From the NCBI RefSeq assembly GCF_003018255.1, contig NZ_CP027440.1: a DNA stretch of 64,000 bases. The stretch is one strand, 5' to 3'. The position numbers and the translations under genes were made by a program. The DNA comes from Escherichia coli (GTDB lineage: Bacteria > Pseudomonadota > Gammaproteobacteria > Enterobacterales > Enterobacteriaceae). The notes under the pieces are model-generated. The model made no database searches. It saw only the letters and a program-made list of their open reading frames with translations, and was not told the DNA's origin. Below, one piece after another: positions 5,939 through 49,522 of this stretch. Positions within the stretch are counted from its first letter, which is position 1. The number at the start of each line of letters is the position of its first letter.

Positions 5939-7180
5939 TCATTTCACTACATGAAGAATTTTTAGCATAGAGTTGTCAATGGTCTGTTTGATTTTCTCGT
6001 AATAAATTGGTTCAGATAATGGCGAGTCCCAGGTATGTATATCATTTTTATCAAAGGGAATACATTTCATCGCTGTCTTTTTTAGTTTTTTCCCTTTTTG
6101 TTCGTACTCGTCAATGTCATTTACAGTGAATTTCAAACTTTCTATTCTTGCTTTGACTATTGCTGTTGGGCAGATGAGTTTTATATTCCCTAAAGTAAAT
6201 GTGTTAACTCCAGTAATGAAGAATCTATCAGGGATGTTTTTATAGTATCGAGTATTCCATATTTTACCATTAAACATACCTGCTGGGTGAGTTGCTCTTT
6301 CAATATAGTATTCATGGGTTCTCTGGTCACTAATCCCTGAAAGATTCATTGTCATATTAGCTATCATGTTGGGAATAGGTCTGTACCAAACGCTAAGTGC
6401 AGCGGTTGCGACAGGTATAAATATTAAAACAACAATAATTCCTGTCATTTTATTGCCGTTTTGCCGTTCATTAATATGTATGATACCAGGCAGAATGCCA
6501 ATTGTAACAATAACTACAGTTATGGCAATGAGTATGCTCATCTCATACCAGTCACTAGTACCCTCACTGAAATTAAGTTGGTTAAACAGAAACATCATTG
6601 GTAATATTTGTACTACTCCAGGTATTATAAGTTGTAAGGATAACCAGAAGTTGAATCCTTTCTTTCTGGATAGTTTTTCGTATCGCACTGTATTATTTAA
6701 GCGAGATTTTTGTTTTCTAAATAGCCGAATCGCACATGTAACATAGCTGTGAATAAATATGGAAATAATACTAAAGGCTGTAATTATGTAGCCATTCCAT
6801 TTTGTCATGTAATAAATGTAATAAGCAATGATTAGCAGGCAGCATATAAATAAGCTATTCTGATAGCAAACAGTAGAAATCCGATGGGTGATGCTAGAAT
6901 ATACCTTTAACTTGTTTTCATATCCAGAGTAAATAAGTATTAAAATAAAAGATGAGATGAAAATTATTAGGCTGAATCCTGATATCGATAATAAAATAAA
7001 AAAGAATATAATCCCTAAGGTTGAACTGAGGTTTACAGCATCGAAAAAAATATCTAATCTATCAATGTTTGATAGGTAAAACCATATAACTGCTATCGTG
7101 AATCCAGTGATGAAGGTAGATGAGGTTACTACTGAAATAATGAATTTTTTGTTTATGATATTAAAAATAGGTTTGTCCAT
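5939..7180 (-). CDS. AT-rich cargo protein: polytopic membrane N-terminal half (~8 TM helices) plus C-terminal soluble domain, unknown function
   Basis: 413 aa ORF; conspicuously AT-rich, I/K/N/Y-rich codon usage unlike the GC-rich ICE backbone; no recognisable catalytic motif. Confidence 0.6.
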   Translation of the reverse strand: MDKPIFNIINKKFIISVVTSSTFITGFTIAVIWFYLSNIDRLDIFFDAVNLSSTLGIIFFFILLSISGFSLIIFISSFILILIYSGYENKLKVYSSITHRISTVCYQNSLFICCLLIIAYYIYYMTKWNGYIITAFSIISIFIHSYVTCAIRLFRKQKSRLNNTVRYEKLSRKKGFNFWLSLQLIIPGVVQILPMMFLFNQLNFSEGTSDWYEMSILIAITVVIVTIGILPGIIHINERQNGNKMTGIIVVLIFIPVATAALSVWYRPIPNMIANMTMNLSGISDQRTHEYYIERATHPAGMFNGKIWNTRYYKNIPDRFFITGVNTFTLGNIKLICPTAIVKARIESLKFTVNDIDEYEQKGKKLKKTAMKCIPFDKNDIHTWDSPLSEPIYYEKIKQTIDNSMLKILHVVK

Positions 7181-25219: not shown

Positions 25220-25248
25220 AACCTACTGATAGTATATATCAGTAGGTT
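25220..25248. terminator. Perfect palindromic hairpin between convergent operons (likely bidirectional terminator)
   Basis: AACCTACTGATAGTATATATCAGTAGGTT between stop of the plus-strand operon (25209) and stop of the minus-strand restriction gene (25271). Confidence 0.5.
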
Positions 25249-34953: not shown

Positions 34954-35430
34954 AGATAGTTGAGATACCAGGGATGGTGTTAAAAACTACATTATTCTTA
35001 CGATATATCAAAAATGATTAACCATTTATTAATTGATGTTATTGTAAGTGTGATTCTTAATTATCATAATAAACATTAAGTTAACCATATCCATACAAAA
35101 TACAATGGCTTATGTTCTTCAAAATAAATAAACAAAATCATTCATAAATTTACACATCACTTAAATTCTCCTGTTTCCACACTTTTTTCTTTATTTTTTA
35201 AGCAACTGGAAGTTAATCTTCTGCAATCTATTGTTATATTGAATCAAATCAATGAAAATAGATGTTGTCACATCAGTGATATTTTATTTTTGTATGATAT
35301 TTAATGTAATTGACTGATAGCCACATCACTTCGTGTGTGGTTATCTTTTTATCTATTGGGCTAATTTTGACCGATTGAGGTTTCCTATAGGTATTCATTC
35401 AAATATATCTCAGTTAGGAGTACTACTATT

Positions 35431-43250: not shown

Positions 43251-43284
43251 GAGCCTGCCATTGGCAGGCTCCGGTGTTCTTTTA
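43251..43284 (+). terminator. Hairpin plus T-run after the fim operon (overlaps gntP 3' end)
   Basis: GAGCCTGCCATTGGCAGGCTC followed by CGGTGTTCTTTT. Confidence 0.35.
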
Positions 43285-44625
43285 CGCTACCATGCTAATA
43301 ATCAACACAATAATCAGCCCAACCACGGAGTTGACCAGCTCCAGCAGACCCCAGGTTTTCAACGTGTCTTTTACTGACAGGTCAAAGTAACCTTTGAACA
43401 ACCAGAAAGATGCATCGTTAATGTGCGTGAGGGTGTTGGAACCCGCAGCCGTCGCCAGCACCAGCAGCGCCGGATTCACGCCAACCAGCTGACCGGTTGC
43501 TGGATCAAGGATTGCAGCACTGATAATCCCGGCAGCGGTCATCGCCGAAACGACACCCTGACCCGTCGCCAGACGAATCAGTACGGTGATCAGCCATGCC
43601 ATGATGTAGGGCGAGATATTGCCGTGGGACATCAACATGCCGATGGTGTCGCCAATGCCGGTGTCGATGATGGTCTGCTTCAGCACGCCACCCGCACCGA
43701 TGATCAGAATCACCATTGCAATGCTTTTCACCGCGCTTTCAAAAGCGTTCATCACCCACTGCATGTCATGACCACGCGCGGTGCCAAAGAGTACGAATGC
43801 AACCACCATCGCAATAAACATTGCAATCGGCGAGGAACCGATAAAGTTAACCACTTCCCAGGCAGGGGTATCTTTTACCAGCCAGATATTGGCGATGGTG
43901 GTAGAGATCATAATGATCGCCGGGATCAGCGGCACCAGAATCGAAACGCCGAAAGAGGGCAGATTATTCATATCTACCGGTTGATCTGCTTTCAGGAATG
44001 ATGGCGTTGGGCGCTCAAGATTGCCGAGGAACTTCGGCAGGATCAGACCTGCGCAGATGACACTTGGGATCGTCACCAGTACGCCATAGATATAAACCAT
44101 CCCCATATCCGCGCCATAGGCATTCACCAGCGCCACCGGACCCGGCTGCGGTGGGAACAGTGAATGTGCGGTAGTGGCAGCTGCTACTGCCGGGATCGCC
44201 AGTTTCAGGAACGGAATTTTAGCTTCGGCGGCAATAACAATAACCAGCGGCGCCAGCATAATAAAGGCCACTTCATAGAACATCGCCAGACCAAAAATAA
44301 GTCCGATGATAATCACTGATATCTGAACATAGCGCAGGCCGAGACGTGCCAGCAGGGTATGCGCTATCTGGTGAGCAGCGCCGGAGTCGACCATCAATTT
44401 ACCGATGACCGCACCAAACACCACGATGATCGCCAGTTCCCCCAGCGTGTTGCCGAAACCTGCTTTCATGGTGTGCAGCAGCGACATCAAATCCATACCG
44501 GCCAGCATCCCGACGGACAGCGCCGCCACCAACAAAGCCACCATCGAATTGATTTTGAACTTCAAATTCAGTACCAGCATCAGGCCAATGCCGAATACCA
44601 CCCAGAGAATGTTAAGCACATGCAT
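43282..44625 (-). CDS. gntP: Gluconate/fructuronate transporter GntP
   Basis: 447 aa polytopic membrane protein ([23 protein letters not shown]...). Confidence 0.9.
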
Positions 44626-44788
44626 AACGTTTTACCTTACCTGGTTGAACCGTTGTTATTTTGGGCGACATGTTATGTAAATTGGTCAACCATTGTTGCG
44701 ATGAATGTCACATCCTCTGATCAATAACCATCGATTACCCTTTGCTGCAATTTGCAGCAACAACCAGGAGAGTGAAATTCTTGTGATG

Positions 44789-44798
44789 TGGTTAACCA
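44789..44798. promoter_or_regulatory. Palindrome TGGTTAACCA in gntP-uxuA divergent region; candidate UxuR/ExuR operator
   Basis: Perfect 10-bp palindrome, resembling the TTGGTATACCAA-type UxuR/ExuR box (from memory), between divergent gntP and uxuA. Confidence 0.3.
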
Positions 44799-44964
44799 AT
44801 TTCAGATTTCGGGTTGACATGTCTTACCAAAAGGTAGAACTTATACGCCATCTCATCCGATGCAACGCCACGGCTGCGGTCTGGTTGTTCATCCGGATAC
44901 CTAAACAACTCCGGGGCTCCACGTCTCTTTGCTGTGGAACCCACTATGTGAAAGAGGAAAAATC

Positions 44965-46149
44965 ATGGAACAGACCTGGCGCTGGTACGGCCCAAACGAT
45001 CCGGTTTCTTTAGCTGATGTCCGTCAGGCGGGCGCAACTGGCGTGGTTACCGCGCTGCACCATATCCCGAACGGCGAAGTATGGTCCGTAGAAGAGATCC
45101 TCAAACGCAAGGCGATCGTTGAAGACGCAGGCCTGGTGTGGTCTGTCGTTGAAAGCGTACCAATTCACGAAGATATCAAAACCCACACTGGCAACTATGA
45201 GCAGTGGATTGCTAACTATCAGCAGACCCTGCGCAACCTGGCGCAGTGCGGCATTCGCACCGTGTGCTACAACTTCATGCCGGTGCTCGACTGGACCCGT
45301 ACTGACCTCGAATACGTGCTGCCAGACGGCTCCAAAGCTCTGCGCTTCGACCAGATCGAATTCGCTGCATTCGAAATGCATATCCTGAAGCGTCCAGGCG
45401 CGGAAGCGGATTACACCGAAGAAGAAATTGCTCAGGCAGCTGTTCGCTTCGCCACTATGAGCGACGAAGACAAAGCGCGTCTGACCCGTAACATCATTGC
45501 CGGTCTGCCAGGTGCGGAAGAAGGGTATACCCTCGACCAGTTCCGTAAGCACCTGGAGCTGTACAAAGATATCGACAAAGCGAAGCTGCGCGAAAACTTC
45601 GCTGTCTTCCTGAAAGCGATTATTCCAGTTGCTGAAGAAGTTGGCGTGCGTATGGCGGTTCACCCGGACGATCCGCCGCGCCCGATCCTCGGCCTGCCGC
45701 GCATTGTTTCCACCATTGAAGATATGCAGTGGATGGTTGATACCGTAAACAGCATGGCGAACGGTTTCACCATGTGCACCGGTTCCTACGGCGTGCGTGC
45801 TGACAACGATCTGGTTGATATGATCAAGCAGTTCGGTCCGCGTATTTACTTCACCCATCTGCGCTCCACCATGCGTGAAGATAACCCGAAAACCTTCCAC
45901 GAAGCGGCGCACCTGAACGGTGACGTTGATATGTACGAAGTGGTGAAAGCGATTGTTGAAGAAGAACACCGTCGTAAAGCGGAAGGCAAAGAAGACCTGA
46001 TCCCGATGCGTCCGGACCACGGTCATCAGATGCTGGACGACCTGAAGAAGAAAACCAATCCTGGTTACTCCGCAATTGGTCGTCTGAAAGGCCTGGCCGA
46101 AGTTCGCGGTGTCGAACTGGCGATCCAGCGCGCTTTCTTTAGCCGTTAA
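44965..46149 (+). CDS. uxuA: Mannonate dehydratase UxuA
   Basis: ORF 44929 trimmed to [40 protein letters not shown], 394 aa. Confidence 0.95.
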
Positions 46150-46229: not shown

Positions 46230-47690
46230 ATGACTACTATTGTTGACAGCAATCTGCCGGTTGCCCGCCCGTCATGGGATCATTCTCGTCTGGAATCACG
46301 CATTGTGCATCTCGGTTGCGGGGCGTTTCACCGCGCGCACCAGGCGCTGTACACTCATCACCTGCTGGAAAGCACGGATAGCGACTGGGGGATCTGCGAA
46401 GTTAACCTGATGCCAGGCAACGACCGCGTGCTGATCGAAAACCTGAAAAAACAGCAACTGCTGTACACCGTGGCGGAAAAAGGCGCAGAAAGCACCGAGC
46501 TGAAAATTATCGGTTCGATGAAAGAAGCCCTGCACCCGGAAATCGACGGTTGCGAAGGTATTCTCAACGCGATGGCGCGTCCGCAGACGGCGATTGTCTC
46601 TCTGACGGTCACGGAAAAAGGCTACTGCGCAGATGCGGCAAGCGGTCAACTGGATCTCAATAACCCGCTGATCAAGCACGATCTGGAAAACCCGACTGCG
46701 CCGAAGTCTGCGATTGGTTACATCGTAGAAGCCCTGCGTCTGCGTCGTGAAAAAGGGCTGAAAGCATTTACGGTGATGTCCTGCGATAACGTGCGTGAAA
46801 ACGGTCATGTGGCGAAGGTTGCCGTTCTTGGGCTGGCTCAGGCGCGTGACCCGCAACTGGCGGCATGGATTGAAGAGAACGTCACCTTCCCGTGCACCAT
46901 GGTTGACCGCATCGTTCCGGCGGCGACGCCAGAAACCTTACAGGAAATTGCTGACCAGCTGGGTGTTTACGACCCGTGCGCCATTGCCTGCGAACCGTTC
47001 CGTCAGTGGGTAATTGAAGATAACTTCGTTAATGGTCGTCCGGACTGGGATAAAGTCGGCGCGCAGTTTGTTGCGGATGTTGTACCGTTCGAAATGATGA
47101 AGCTGCGTATGCTGAACGGTAGCCACTCTTTCCTGGCGTACCTCGGTTACCTCGGCGGCTATGAAACTATTGCCGACACCATGACTAACCCGGCTTATCG
47201 CAAAGCGGCCTTTGCCCTGATGATGCAGGAACAAGCGCCAACGCTGTCGATGCCGGAAGGTACAGACCTGAACGCTTATGCGACGCTGCTGATCGAGCGT
47301 TTCAGCAACCCGTCTCTGCGTCACCGTACCTGGCAGATTGCAATGGACGGCAGCCAGAAGTTACCGCAGCGTCTGCTGGACCCGGTGCGTCTGCACCTGC
47401 AAAACGGCGGTAGCTGGCGTCACCTGGCGCTGGGCGTGGCGGGCTGGATGCGTTACACCCAGGGCGTGGATGAGCAGGGTAATGCCATTGACGTGGTTGA
47501 CCCGATGCTGGCGGAGTTCCAGAAGATCAACGCGCAGTATCAGGGTGCAGACCGCGTGAAAGCACTGCTGGGCCTGAGCGGTATCTTTGCCGATGATCTG
47601 CCGCAGAACGCCGACTTTGTTGGCGCGGTGACGGCGGCATATCAGCAGCTGTGTGAGCGCGGTGCGCGCGAGTGTGTGGCTGCGCTGTAA
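46230..47690 (+). CDS. uxuB: D-mannonate oxidoreductase UxuB
   Basis: 486 aa; N-terminal Rossmann motif LGCGAFHRAHQALY. Confidence 0.95.
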   Translation: MTTIVDSNLPVARPSWDHSRLESRIVHLGCGAFHRAHQALYTHHLLESTDSDWGICEVNLMPGNDRVLIENLKKQQLLYTVAEKGAESTELKIIGSMKEALHPEIDGCEGILNAMARPQTAIVSLTVTEKGYCADAASGQLDLNNPLIKHDLENPTAPKSAIGYIVEALRLRREKGLKAFTVMSCDNVRENGHVAKVAVLGLAQARDPQLAAWIEENVTFPCTMVDRIVPAATPETLQEIADQLGVYDPCAIACEPFRQWVIEDNFVNGRPDWDKVGAQFVADVVPFEMMKLRMLNGSHSFLAYLGYLGGYETIADTMTNPAYRKAAFALMMQEQAPTLSMPEGTDLNAYATLLIERFSNPSLRHRTWQIAMDGSQKLPQRLLDPVRLHLQNGGSWRHLALGVAGWMRYTQGVDEQGNAIDVVDPMLAEFQKINAQYQGADRVKALLGLSGIFADDLPQNADFVGAVTAAYQQLCERGARECVAAL

Positions 47691-47714
47691 CTAACTGATT
47701 ACCCTACAGACTTA

Positions 47715-47759
47715 CTGGTCAATCAAACTAATATTTGGTTGACCAGTTTTCGTTTTTTT
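47715..47759 (+). terminator. Rho-independent terminator downstream of uxuB
   Basis: CTGGTCAATCAAACTAATATTTGGTTGACCAG hairpin followed by TTTTCGTTTTTTT. Confidence 0.6.
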
Positions 47760-47833
47760 GCCCACCTGTACGTGCCAACATCCAGTGCTAATGGTATAGT
47801 TTGAGCTTAACGGGTGCCGTAAAATTGCCCGTT

Positions 47834-47866
<33 letters not shown>

Positions 47867-47904
47867 AAAAAATTTGATTAACCGCACCTAACGGACACAA
47901 CACC

Positions 47905-48678
47905 ATGAAATCTGCCACCTCTGCGCAAAGACCTTACCAGGAAGTCGGGGCGATGATCCGCGATCTGATCATAAAGACGCCGTACAATCCTGGCGAACGG
48001 CTGCCACCGGAGCGTGAAATTGCAGAAATGCTTGATGTCACGCGGACGGTGGTACGTGAAGCGCTGATCATGCTGGAGATCAAAGGGCTGGTGGAAGTGC
48101 GCCGGGGTGCCGGTATTTATGTTCTTGATAGCTCAGGCAGCCACAACACAGACAGTCCGGATGCCAACGTCTGTAATGATGCCGGTCCTTTTGAGCTGTT
48201 ACAGGCGCGTCAGTTACTGGAAAGTAACATCGCGGAATTTGCCGCTTTGCAGGCTACCCGCGAAGATATCGTCAAAATGCGTCAGGCATTGCAACTGGAA
48301 GAGCGTGAACTGGCTTCCAGCGCGCCGGGTAGCAGCGAAAGCGGTGATATGCAGTTCCATCTCGCCATTGCCGAAGCAACGCATAACAGCATGCTGGTGG
48401 AGTTATTCCGTCAGTCCTGGCAGTGGCGGGAAAACAATCCAATGTGGATCCAATTGCACAGCCATCTCGATGACAGCCTGTATCGCAAAGAGTGGTTGGG
48501 CGATCACAAACAGATCCTCGCCGCGTTAATCAAAAAAGATGCCCGTGCGGCGAAGCTGGCAATGTGGCAGCATCTGGAAAACGTTAAACAACGTCTGCTG
48601 GAATTCTCGAACGTTGACGATATTTATTTTGACGGCTATCTGTTTGATTCATGGCCGCTGGATAAAGTCGACGCCTGA
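47905..48678 (+). CDS. uxuR: GntR-family repressor UxuR
   Basis: 257 aa; N-terminal winged HTH, FadR-type C-terminal domain. Confidence 0.95.
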   Translation: MKSATSAQRPYQEVGAMIRDLIIKTPYNPGERLPPEREIAEMLDVTRTVVREALIMLEIKGLVEVRRGAGIYVLDSSGSHNTDSPDANVCNDAGPFELLQARQLLESNIAEFAALQATREDIVKMRQALQLEERELASSAPGSSESGDMQFHLAIAEATHNSMLVELFRQSWQWRENNPMWIQLHSHLDDSLYRKEWLGDHKQILAALIKKDARAAKLAMWQHLENVKQRLLEFSNVDDIYFDGYLFDSWPLDKVDA

Positions 48679-49475: not shown

Positions 49476-49522
49476 ATGACGGGAAACGCGATACGCGCAA
49501 GACGTATCGCGTTAGGTCACAA

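Follow-up and report, generated by a model that had tools for sequence, protein, structure and literature searches.

The gntP–uxuA palindrome of Escherichia coli as the probable core of a UxuR operator overlapping a CRP-like site

The palindrome TGGTTAACCA, which lies in the 339-bp spacer between the divergent genes gntP and uxuA of Escherichia coli, is very probably the core of the uxuA-proximal operator of UxuR, within an explanation in which this operator overlaps a CRP-like site and is one of two UxuR operators in the spacer; we put the chances of this reading at roughly four in five. It was reached by following up a preliminary description of a stretch of E. coli DNA 64,000 nucleotides long, referred to here as the window, and the coordinates of the features concerned are collected in Table 1.

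Table 1. Genes, operators, CRP-like sites and predicted promoter elements of the uxu locus, in window coordinates
Feature	Positions	Strand	Remarks
gntP (fructuronate transporter)	43282-44625	minus	equivalog or subfamily model
gntP -10 hexamer TAACAT, inferred	44670-44675	minus	read from sequence
gntP-proximal UxuR operator TAAATTGGTCAACCATTGTT	44678-44697	none	20.7 bits, third in window
CRP-like site TGCGATGAATGTCACA	44697-44712	none	9/10 core bases; centre 44704.5; inferred class II site for gntP
19-bp palindrome TTGCTGCAATTTGCAGCAA = TTGCTGCAA-T-TTGCAGCAA	44742-44760	none	perfect 9-bp arms
CRP-like site TGTGATGTGGTTAACC	44782-44797	none	8/10 core bases; centre 44789.5
uxuA-proximal UxuR operator, full 20 bp, TGATGTGGTTAACCAATTTC	44784-44803	none	best matrix match in window, 23.3 bits
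TGGTTAACCA, core of uxuA-proximal UxuR operator (probable)	44789-44798	none	K-12 NC_000913.3 4551460-4551469, identical
uxuAB -35 hexamer TTGACA, inferred	44814-44819	plus	15 nt after box, in 8 genera
uxuAB weak -10 GAACTT, inferred	44837-44842	plus	17-nt spacer; conserved GAAYTTA block in several genera
uxuA (mannonate dehydratase)	44965-46149	plus	equivalog or subfamily model
uxuB	46230-47690	plus	equivalog or subfamily model
Weaker box adjoining ATATTTGGTTGACCAGTTTT, CTTACTGGTCAATCAAACTA	47711-47730	none	11.7 bits; centre 20 bp from centre of ATATTTGGTTGACCAGTTTT
UxuR operator upstream of uxuR, autoregulation, ATATTTGGTTGACCAGTTTT	47731-47750	none	21.6 bits, second in window
uxuR (cognate repressor gene)	47905-48678	plus	NCBIfam equivalog NF007588, 583.8 bits against a cut-off of 442

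Motif identity, geometry and conservation

The preliminary description had called TGGTTAACCA a perfect palindrome in the region between divergent gntP and uxuA, and both statements stand, the first by inspection of the sequence and the second by the gene models, which place the two genes on the minus and plus strands, respectively. Of 5426 complete E. coli genomes, 5404 match a 1-kb query around the palindrome, with gntP and uxuA annotated there; in about 16% of the complete genomes less than 80% of this query is covered, a hint of structural variation. The spacer of K-12 MG1655 differs from that of the window at six positions, none of which falls inside the palindromes. With the palindrome 167–176 bp upstream of the uxuA ATG and uxuR present in the same genome, the location is a regulatory one for hexuronate genes.

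Palindromy by itself is not remarkable. The window contains 59 perfect 10-bp palindromes where 62.5 are expected, roughly one per kb, and this frequency speaks for one alternative, namely that positions 44789–44798 are a chance occurrence with no function. In the spacer TGGTTAACCA is the only such palindrome, where about 0.33 would be expected; as a particular sequence it is present in the window once, against 0.06 expected, with at least one copy in 6 of 100 shuffles, and it is motif identity together with position that exceeds chance. The top matrix score, conservation across genera, recurrence upstream of uxuA in many species and published binding of UxuR to the spacer all contradict the chance reading, to which we attach a practically negligible probability.

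The matrix used to rank UxuR boxes was symmetrised and built from 20 distinct boxes, none of them from Escherichia. The three best matches in the 64 kb are the box around TGGTTAACCA, the box upstream of uxuR and the gntP-proximal box, in that order (scores in Table 1), and all three exceed the maximum of 18.0 bits obtained in 100 shuffles; the fourth match reaches 14.1 bits. The core of the matrix was preset by the regular expression with which the boxes were collected, so that only the flanks and the ranking count as independent evidence. The matches at 35010–35029 and 6574–6593, at 14.1 and 12.9 bits, are under the shuffle maximum and are most likely due to chance. A search with the consensus AAATTGGTNNACCAATTT at up to three mismatches gave four matches in the window, three of them within the uxu locus: 44679–44696 by gntP, 44785–44802 at the palindrome, and 47732–47749 between uxuB and uxuR. 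Compared with the extended AT-rich consensus AAATTGGTnnACCAATTT of UxuR, the palindrome box has three mismatches, all in the left flank. The right flank, AATTT, agrees with the consensus, and the left flank reads GATG instead of AAAT because these bases are held in common with a CRP half-site.

Conservation was assessed at the uxuA loci of 80 species. The motif TGGTNNACCA is found 29 times in the 32 kb upstream of uxuA (400 bp per species) and 34 times in the remaining 455 kb, a 12-fold difference in density. The palindrome is unchanged in eight diverse E. coli, in E. albertii and in four Citrobacter, so that a UxuR operator is conserved at the orthologous position in related genomes; between Escherichia and Citrobacter the box is invariant, whereas the middle of the spacer cannot be aligned. 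The box lies 176 nt before the ATG in Escherichia and 98 nt before it in Citrobacter, because a segment of about 79 nt in the inferred uxuA leader (44868–44946) is found in Escherichia and is missing in Citrobacter. No Rfam family was found in 44500–45100, and the inferred uxuA leader folds no better than its shuffles (z = -1.54). At the other end of the spacer, GGTTGAACC (44643–44651; GGT-N3-ACC) immediately precedes the ribosome-binding site in the putative leader of gntP and is kept between Escherichia and Citrobacter; it could reflect a constraint on the leader or ribosome-binding site, or a FadR-type regulator might bind it weakly. As an ExuR-type site it was rejected, since it is outside the eight best ExuR-matrix matches in the spacer.

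One E. coli locus of the set departs from the usual arrangement. In strain SCPM-O-B-8794 (locus L002) the gene divergent from uxuA, at 938–2083, is a NanM-like N-acetylneuraminate epimerase gene and not gntP, and the next upstream open reading frame is guessed to be NanS-like, again not gntP. This divergent lineage carries a 76-bp extra segment, yet the gntP-type UxuR box and the CRP-like site are kept.

Experimental support for UxuR as the regulator comes from published work. The operator AAATTGGTATACCAATTT, which the palindrome matches, is functional in a synthetic promoter, where it brings about repression by UxuR that is relieved by glucuronate (PMC8092373). Genomic SELEX with purified UxuR detected binding to the gntP/uxuA spacer, at spacer-level resolution, and less of it in the presence of glucuronate (PMC5934670), and when uxuR is deleted, both UxuA and a fusion to the uxuAB promoter are derepressed (PMC9369180). 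Motif identity, conservation, the overlap with a CRP-like site and the two-operator layout come from this analysis, and the binding of UxuR and CRP to the spacer is taken from the literature. Boxes of the form GGTNNACC also lie upstream of uidR, uidA and uxuR in K-12. Of the resemblance to UxuR and ExuR boxes that had been proposed, the part concerning UxuR is thus supported by the matrix rank, the match to AAATTGGTATACCAATTT, the conservation upstream of uxuA in many Enterobacterales and the SELEX data (PMC5934670).

The part concerning ExuR is not. As a rule, GT and AC are separated by 3 nt in sites of the FadR subfamily, those of ExuR included, and by 2 nt in sites of the UxuR group (PMC4494728). 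The palindrome reads TGGT-TA-ACCA, an inverted TKGT/ACMA repeat with the GT-N2-AC geometry of UxuR; its 2-nt spacer does not fit the geometry of ExuR (GT-N3-AC, consensus AAAGTTGTnnnACAACTTT). A matrix made from 15 comparative-genomic ExuR sites, whose training scores range from 10.6 to 25.4 bits, gives a maximum of 8.6 in the spacer, which is below every training site, the mean shuffle maximum being 13.5. The ExuR rows of the S1 File of Suvorova 2015 list five ExuR_ECO sites, at uxaB, uxaCA, exuT, exuR and one entry without a name, and none of these five is at gntP/uxuA (b4321, b4322). ExuR, or an ExuR–UxuR heterodimer, might still use the site as much as UxuR does, which would make it a truly shared box. 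UxuR is the closest paralogue of ExuR, which favours such sharing; classical genetics has uxuAB under the dual control of exuR and uxuR, with heterodimers proposed, as cited in PMC9369180 and PMC5934670; and the ExuR-assigned sites of Pectobacterium include the 2-nt form AAATTGGTTTACCAAATTG in the same S1 File. The E. coli ExuR entries of that file, with none for gntP or uxuA, count against it, and on balance we see in the shared box a serious possibility, if not a probable one.

The UxuR operator upstream of uxuR is accompanied by a neighbour. Two adjacent UxuR-type boxes occupy 47711–47750, one of them imperfect (TGGTCAATCA), and E. albertii has the same 20-bp box pair upstream of uxuR. The uxuR promoter reported as GTGCCA-17-TATAGT by Shimada et al. 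(PMC3946193) maps to 47772–47800; relative to its start site the two boxes would be centred at about -66 and -86, so that here too the core promoter is left uncovered. Between this published promoter and the uxuR start codon there is a REP-like GC-rich element (47828–47870).

Overlap with a CRP-like site and the predicted promoters

The uxuA-proximal operator has nine bases in common with the CRP-like site TGTGATGTGGTTAACC, whose centre is 4 bp upstream of the box centre at 44793.5. At two mismatches or fewer, the window has 21 CRP-like matches against 23.7 expected, which is no enrichment; matches of 8/10 core bases are therefore not rare in the window, and this one, taken alone, is weak evidence. 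The composite TTGTGAT-n-TGGTTAACCAATT is kept in seven genus-level lineages of Enterobacterales (Escherichia, Citrobacter, Enterobacter sp. R1, Cedecea, Enterobacter sp. Ag1, Providencia and Erwinia), and the offset of the TGTGA half-site from the box is constant across all seven. In most of them the composite is followed exactly 15 nt on by TTGACA, and in Erwinia psidii by TTGATA. The literature describes both gntP and uxuA as CRP targets and multiple CRP sites in the spacer (Shimada et al., PMC3105977). The second CRP-like site, TGCGATGAATGTCACA, is a stronger match than TGTGATGTGGTTAACC and one of only two matches with a single mismatch in the window; it abuts the gntP-proximal box and is kept in Citrobacter. 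The footprinted CRP site of uxuAB, 'uxu1' in the standard CRP training set (presumably from Blanco, Ritzenthaler and Kolb, 1986), we take to be TTGTGATGTGGTTAACC.

These observations raise the alternative that what is conserved is in essence the uxuAB CRP site, with the palindrome as no more than its promoter-proximal half and UxuR acting elsewhere. TGTGA-N6-TAACC has 8 of the 10 CRP core bases, the offset of TGTGA is fixed, and the spacer has several CRP sites (PMC3105977). However, the strictly conserved bases, TGGTTAACCAATTT, fit the right half of a CRP site badly (TAACC for TCACA) and make a near-perfect UxuR box, and UxuR boxes without any TGTGA are kept as well, at gntP and uxuR and in Shimwellia and Klebsiella sp. 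BIGb0407. We consider the CRP-only alternative quite unlikely. The CRP and UxuR readings are in any case compatible, and a composite site is the better description.

Promoters were deduced from conserved blocks and from the sequence; a scan of 44560–45020 for consensus sigma-70 promoters found none. For uxuAB, the hexamers of Table 1 would place the start site at about 44849–44851. The centre of TGTGATGTGGTTAACC would then be at about -60.5 to -61.5, the canonical class I positions being -61.5, -71.5, -82.5 and -92.5, and TGTGATGTGGTTAACC has the TGTGA-N6-TCACA-like 16-mer form of a class I site. The centre of the uxuA-proximal operator would lie at about -57. For gntP, the predicted start site at about 44662–44663 would put CRP at about -41.5, a class II position, and the centre of the gntP-proximal box at about -24.5.

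From these positions a mode of repression can be proposed for the UxuR operator. A dimer of UxuR, a GntR/FadR-family protein that represses the hexuronate pathway and is encoded 3 kb downstream, would contact the TGGT and ACCA half-sites and, without inducer, would exclude CRP-cAMP from the promoter-proximal half of the class I activator site; bound UxuR would probably also keep off the alpha C-terminal domain of RNA polymerase. With CRP excluded, the CRP-dependent uxuAB promoter would be silent until D-fructuronate or glucuronate freed the operator of UxuR. The gntP-proximal operator, in the putative core promoter and beside the class II CRP site, would act by direct occlusion. The inferred positions thus point to a distinct mode of repression for each promoter, occlusion at gntP and anti-activation at uxuAB. 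An operator at about -57 leaves the core promoter uncovered, which makes competition between UxuR and CRP a deduction; like the start sites, it should be read as a prediction drawn from sequence.

The second operator and the spacing of box pairs

A single operator shared by gntP and uxuAB, as the preliminary description had expected, does not agree with what is found, since a second box of equal quality, overlooked there, lies next to gntP (44678–44697). It is conserved between Escherichia and Citrobacter, and its centre is 106 bp from that of the uxuA-proximal operator. Because each of the two boxes is at its own inferred promoter, the spacer has no single shared operator, and the best reading is one of two operators, the first in the inferred gntP core promoter and the second at about -57 of the inferred uxuAB promoter.

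Similar distances between box centres recur in other lineages: 104–105 bp in Citrobacter, 105 bp in Enterobacter sp. R1, 102 bp in Cedecea and Enterobacter sp. Ag1, 103 bp in Erwinia psidii, and 112 bp in Providencia and 112–115 bp in Vibrionaceae. Short spacings of 31–34 bp and of 20 bp recur too. Cedecea and Ag1 lack a divergent gene, and their partner box is downstream, in the leader, at an unchanged distance; in E. psidii and Enterobacter sp. R1 the partner box is in the leader as well. The stretch between the boxes of Escherichia and Citrobacter is unalignable in sequence and equal in length to within 2 bp. The distances are in helical phase at 10.4–10.5 bp per turn (R about 0.5, with p about 0.02 once the scan over periods is allowed for), a statistic dominated by the single cluster at 102–106 bp, which comes from few and related lineages. 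Five Vibrionaceae loci (L057, L061, L066, L050 and L072) have three or four UxuR-type boxes about 0.5–2.3 kb upstream of uxuA, with spacings of 112–115, 34 and 104 bp, presumably the regulatory region of an upstream operon to which uxuA belongs.

The spacing of the pairs is suggestive in that it fits cooperative binding or looping. One could accordingly imagine that the boxes at 44678–44697 and 44784–44803 act as a unit, with UxuR closing a loop of about 10 turns and co-repressing gntP and uxuAB. Pair distances cluster at 102–106 bp in Escherichia, Citrobacter, Enterobacter sp. R1, Cedecea, Ag1 and E. psidii and at 112–115 bp in Vibrionaceae and Providencia, the partner box keeps its distance even where it lies downstream in the leader, the inter-box length is kept although the sequence is unalignable, and the distances are helically phased at 10.4–10.5 bp per turn. 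On the other side, UxuR has been described as a dimer (PMC8092373), our literature search found no report of UxuR tetramers or looping, some box pairs, at 142 and 155 bp, depart from the phase, the lineages behind the phasing are few and related with one cluster driving the statistic, and each box of the spacer is already well placed for its own promoter. We regard the loop as a tentative idea and somewhat improbable. Its generalisation, a conserved two-operator device in Enterobacterales and Vibrionaceae made of a CRP-overlapping box with a partner about 10 (102–106 bp) or 11 (112–115 bp) turns away, is more doubtful still; its partner box would be the upstream one in Escherichia and Citrobacter, doubling there as the gntP operator, and the downstream one, in the leader, in Cedecea, E. 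psidii and Enterobacter sp. R1. If true, such a device would imply a DNA loop bridged by UxuR, gal-like and undescribed for this dimeric FadR-type repressor, and an accessory protein could bind the E. coli-specific 19-bp palindrome, which is close to the midpoint of such a loop.

This second palindrome had been noted as a nearby near-palindrome at about 44743–44759. It is real and indeed longer than described, being a perfect 19-mer (44742–44760), but it is unrelated to the UxuR/ExuR motif, because it lacks a GGT/ACC core and its conservation does not extend beyond E. coli; nor is it among the matches in the UxuR- or ExuR-matrix lists. It consists of two tandem TTGCWGCAA units, each a 9-bp palindrome, and is one of only five loci in the window with perfect arms of at least 9 bp and a spacer of 0–10. 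The other four inverted repeats are at 43251–43271, 49486–49512, 25221–25247 and 11844–11861, of which the first, between the convergent genes fimH and gntP, is probably a bidirectional terminator. The 19-mer is invariant in eight diverse E. coli, in which 16 of 47 flanking columns vary, and a 31-mer centred on it has a perfect match in 4193 of 5390 genomes. E. albertii has one uncompensated change in it and the locus L002 has five, and Citrobacter has no counterpart.

Several identities for the 19-mer were weighed against known consensus sequences and rejected. For a terminator, its 1-nt centre gives no room for a loop and a T-run is missing behind it; a sigma-54 promoter would need a GG at -24, which is lacking; its TGCAA repeats are wrongly spaced for a CytR site; and for a PurR/LacI-type site it lacks a central CG. 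The T-N11-A layout of LysR-type regulators fits, and is too generic for a conclusion.

Significance and comparison with known systems

The regulon of uxuAB and gntP is a classical and well-described one, so the palindrome itself is to be counted as already known. The UxuR box, the CRP dependence and the binding of UxuR to the spacer are in the literature, presumably also already in RegulonDB and RegPrecise, and have little import beyond annotation. The analysis is of use for its corrections, in that the box is of the UxuR type, is one of two operators, and is part of a composite with a CRP site that would mean anti-activation at uxuAB. Two modestly interesting leads are the conserved spacing of operator pairs by about 10 turns and the 19-bp palindrome confined to E. 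coli.

The closest known counterpart is the operator AAATTGGTATACCAATTT of the E. coli uxuR promoter as used in the fructuronate biosensor (PMC8092373). It has the TTGGT-N2-ACCAA core and the AATTT flank in common with the uxuA-proximal operator, and the regulator and regulon are the same, with induction by glucuronate or fructuronate. The two differ in the left flank, GATG here and AAAT there, and in placement: the uxuA-proximal operator would lie upstream of the -35 (at about -57, as inferred), whereas the synthetic operator was set between the -35 and the -10. The boxes of FadR, PdhR and LldR likewise present an inverted TNGT...ACNA repeat to a winged-helix dimer, but have a 3-nt central spacer and belong to other regulons (PMC4494728). 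The ExuR operators of E. coli (e.g., AAAGTTGTATGACAAGTTA) resemble the palindrome in being AT-rich TKGT/ACMA repeats bound by a paralogous GntR/FadR repressor of the same pathway, but they have 3 nt between GT and AC and are mostly TTGT/ACAA, whereas the palindrome has 2 nt and TGGT/ACCA.

For the pair of operators the natural comparison is the gal operon, where GalR acts through the operators OE and OI, the upstream one at about -60, near or overlapping the CRP region, and its partner about 10–11 turns away. Like the uxu pair, OE and OI allow repression from a position that leaves the core promoter uncovered. GalR, however, is a member of the LacI family with demonstrated HU-dependent looping, whereas no looping or tetramerisation is known for UxuR, and, unlike in gal, the partner operator in the E. 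coli uxu locus doubles as the operator of a divergent promoter, that of gntP.
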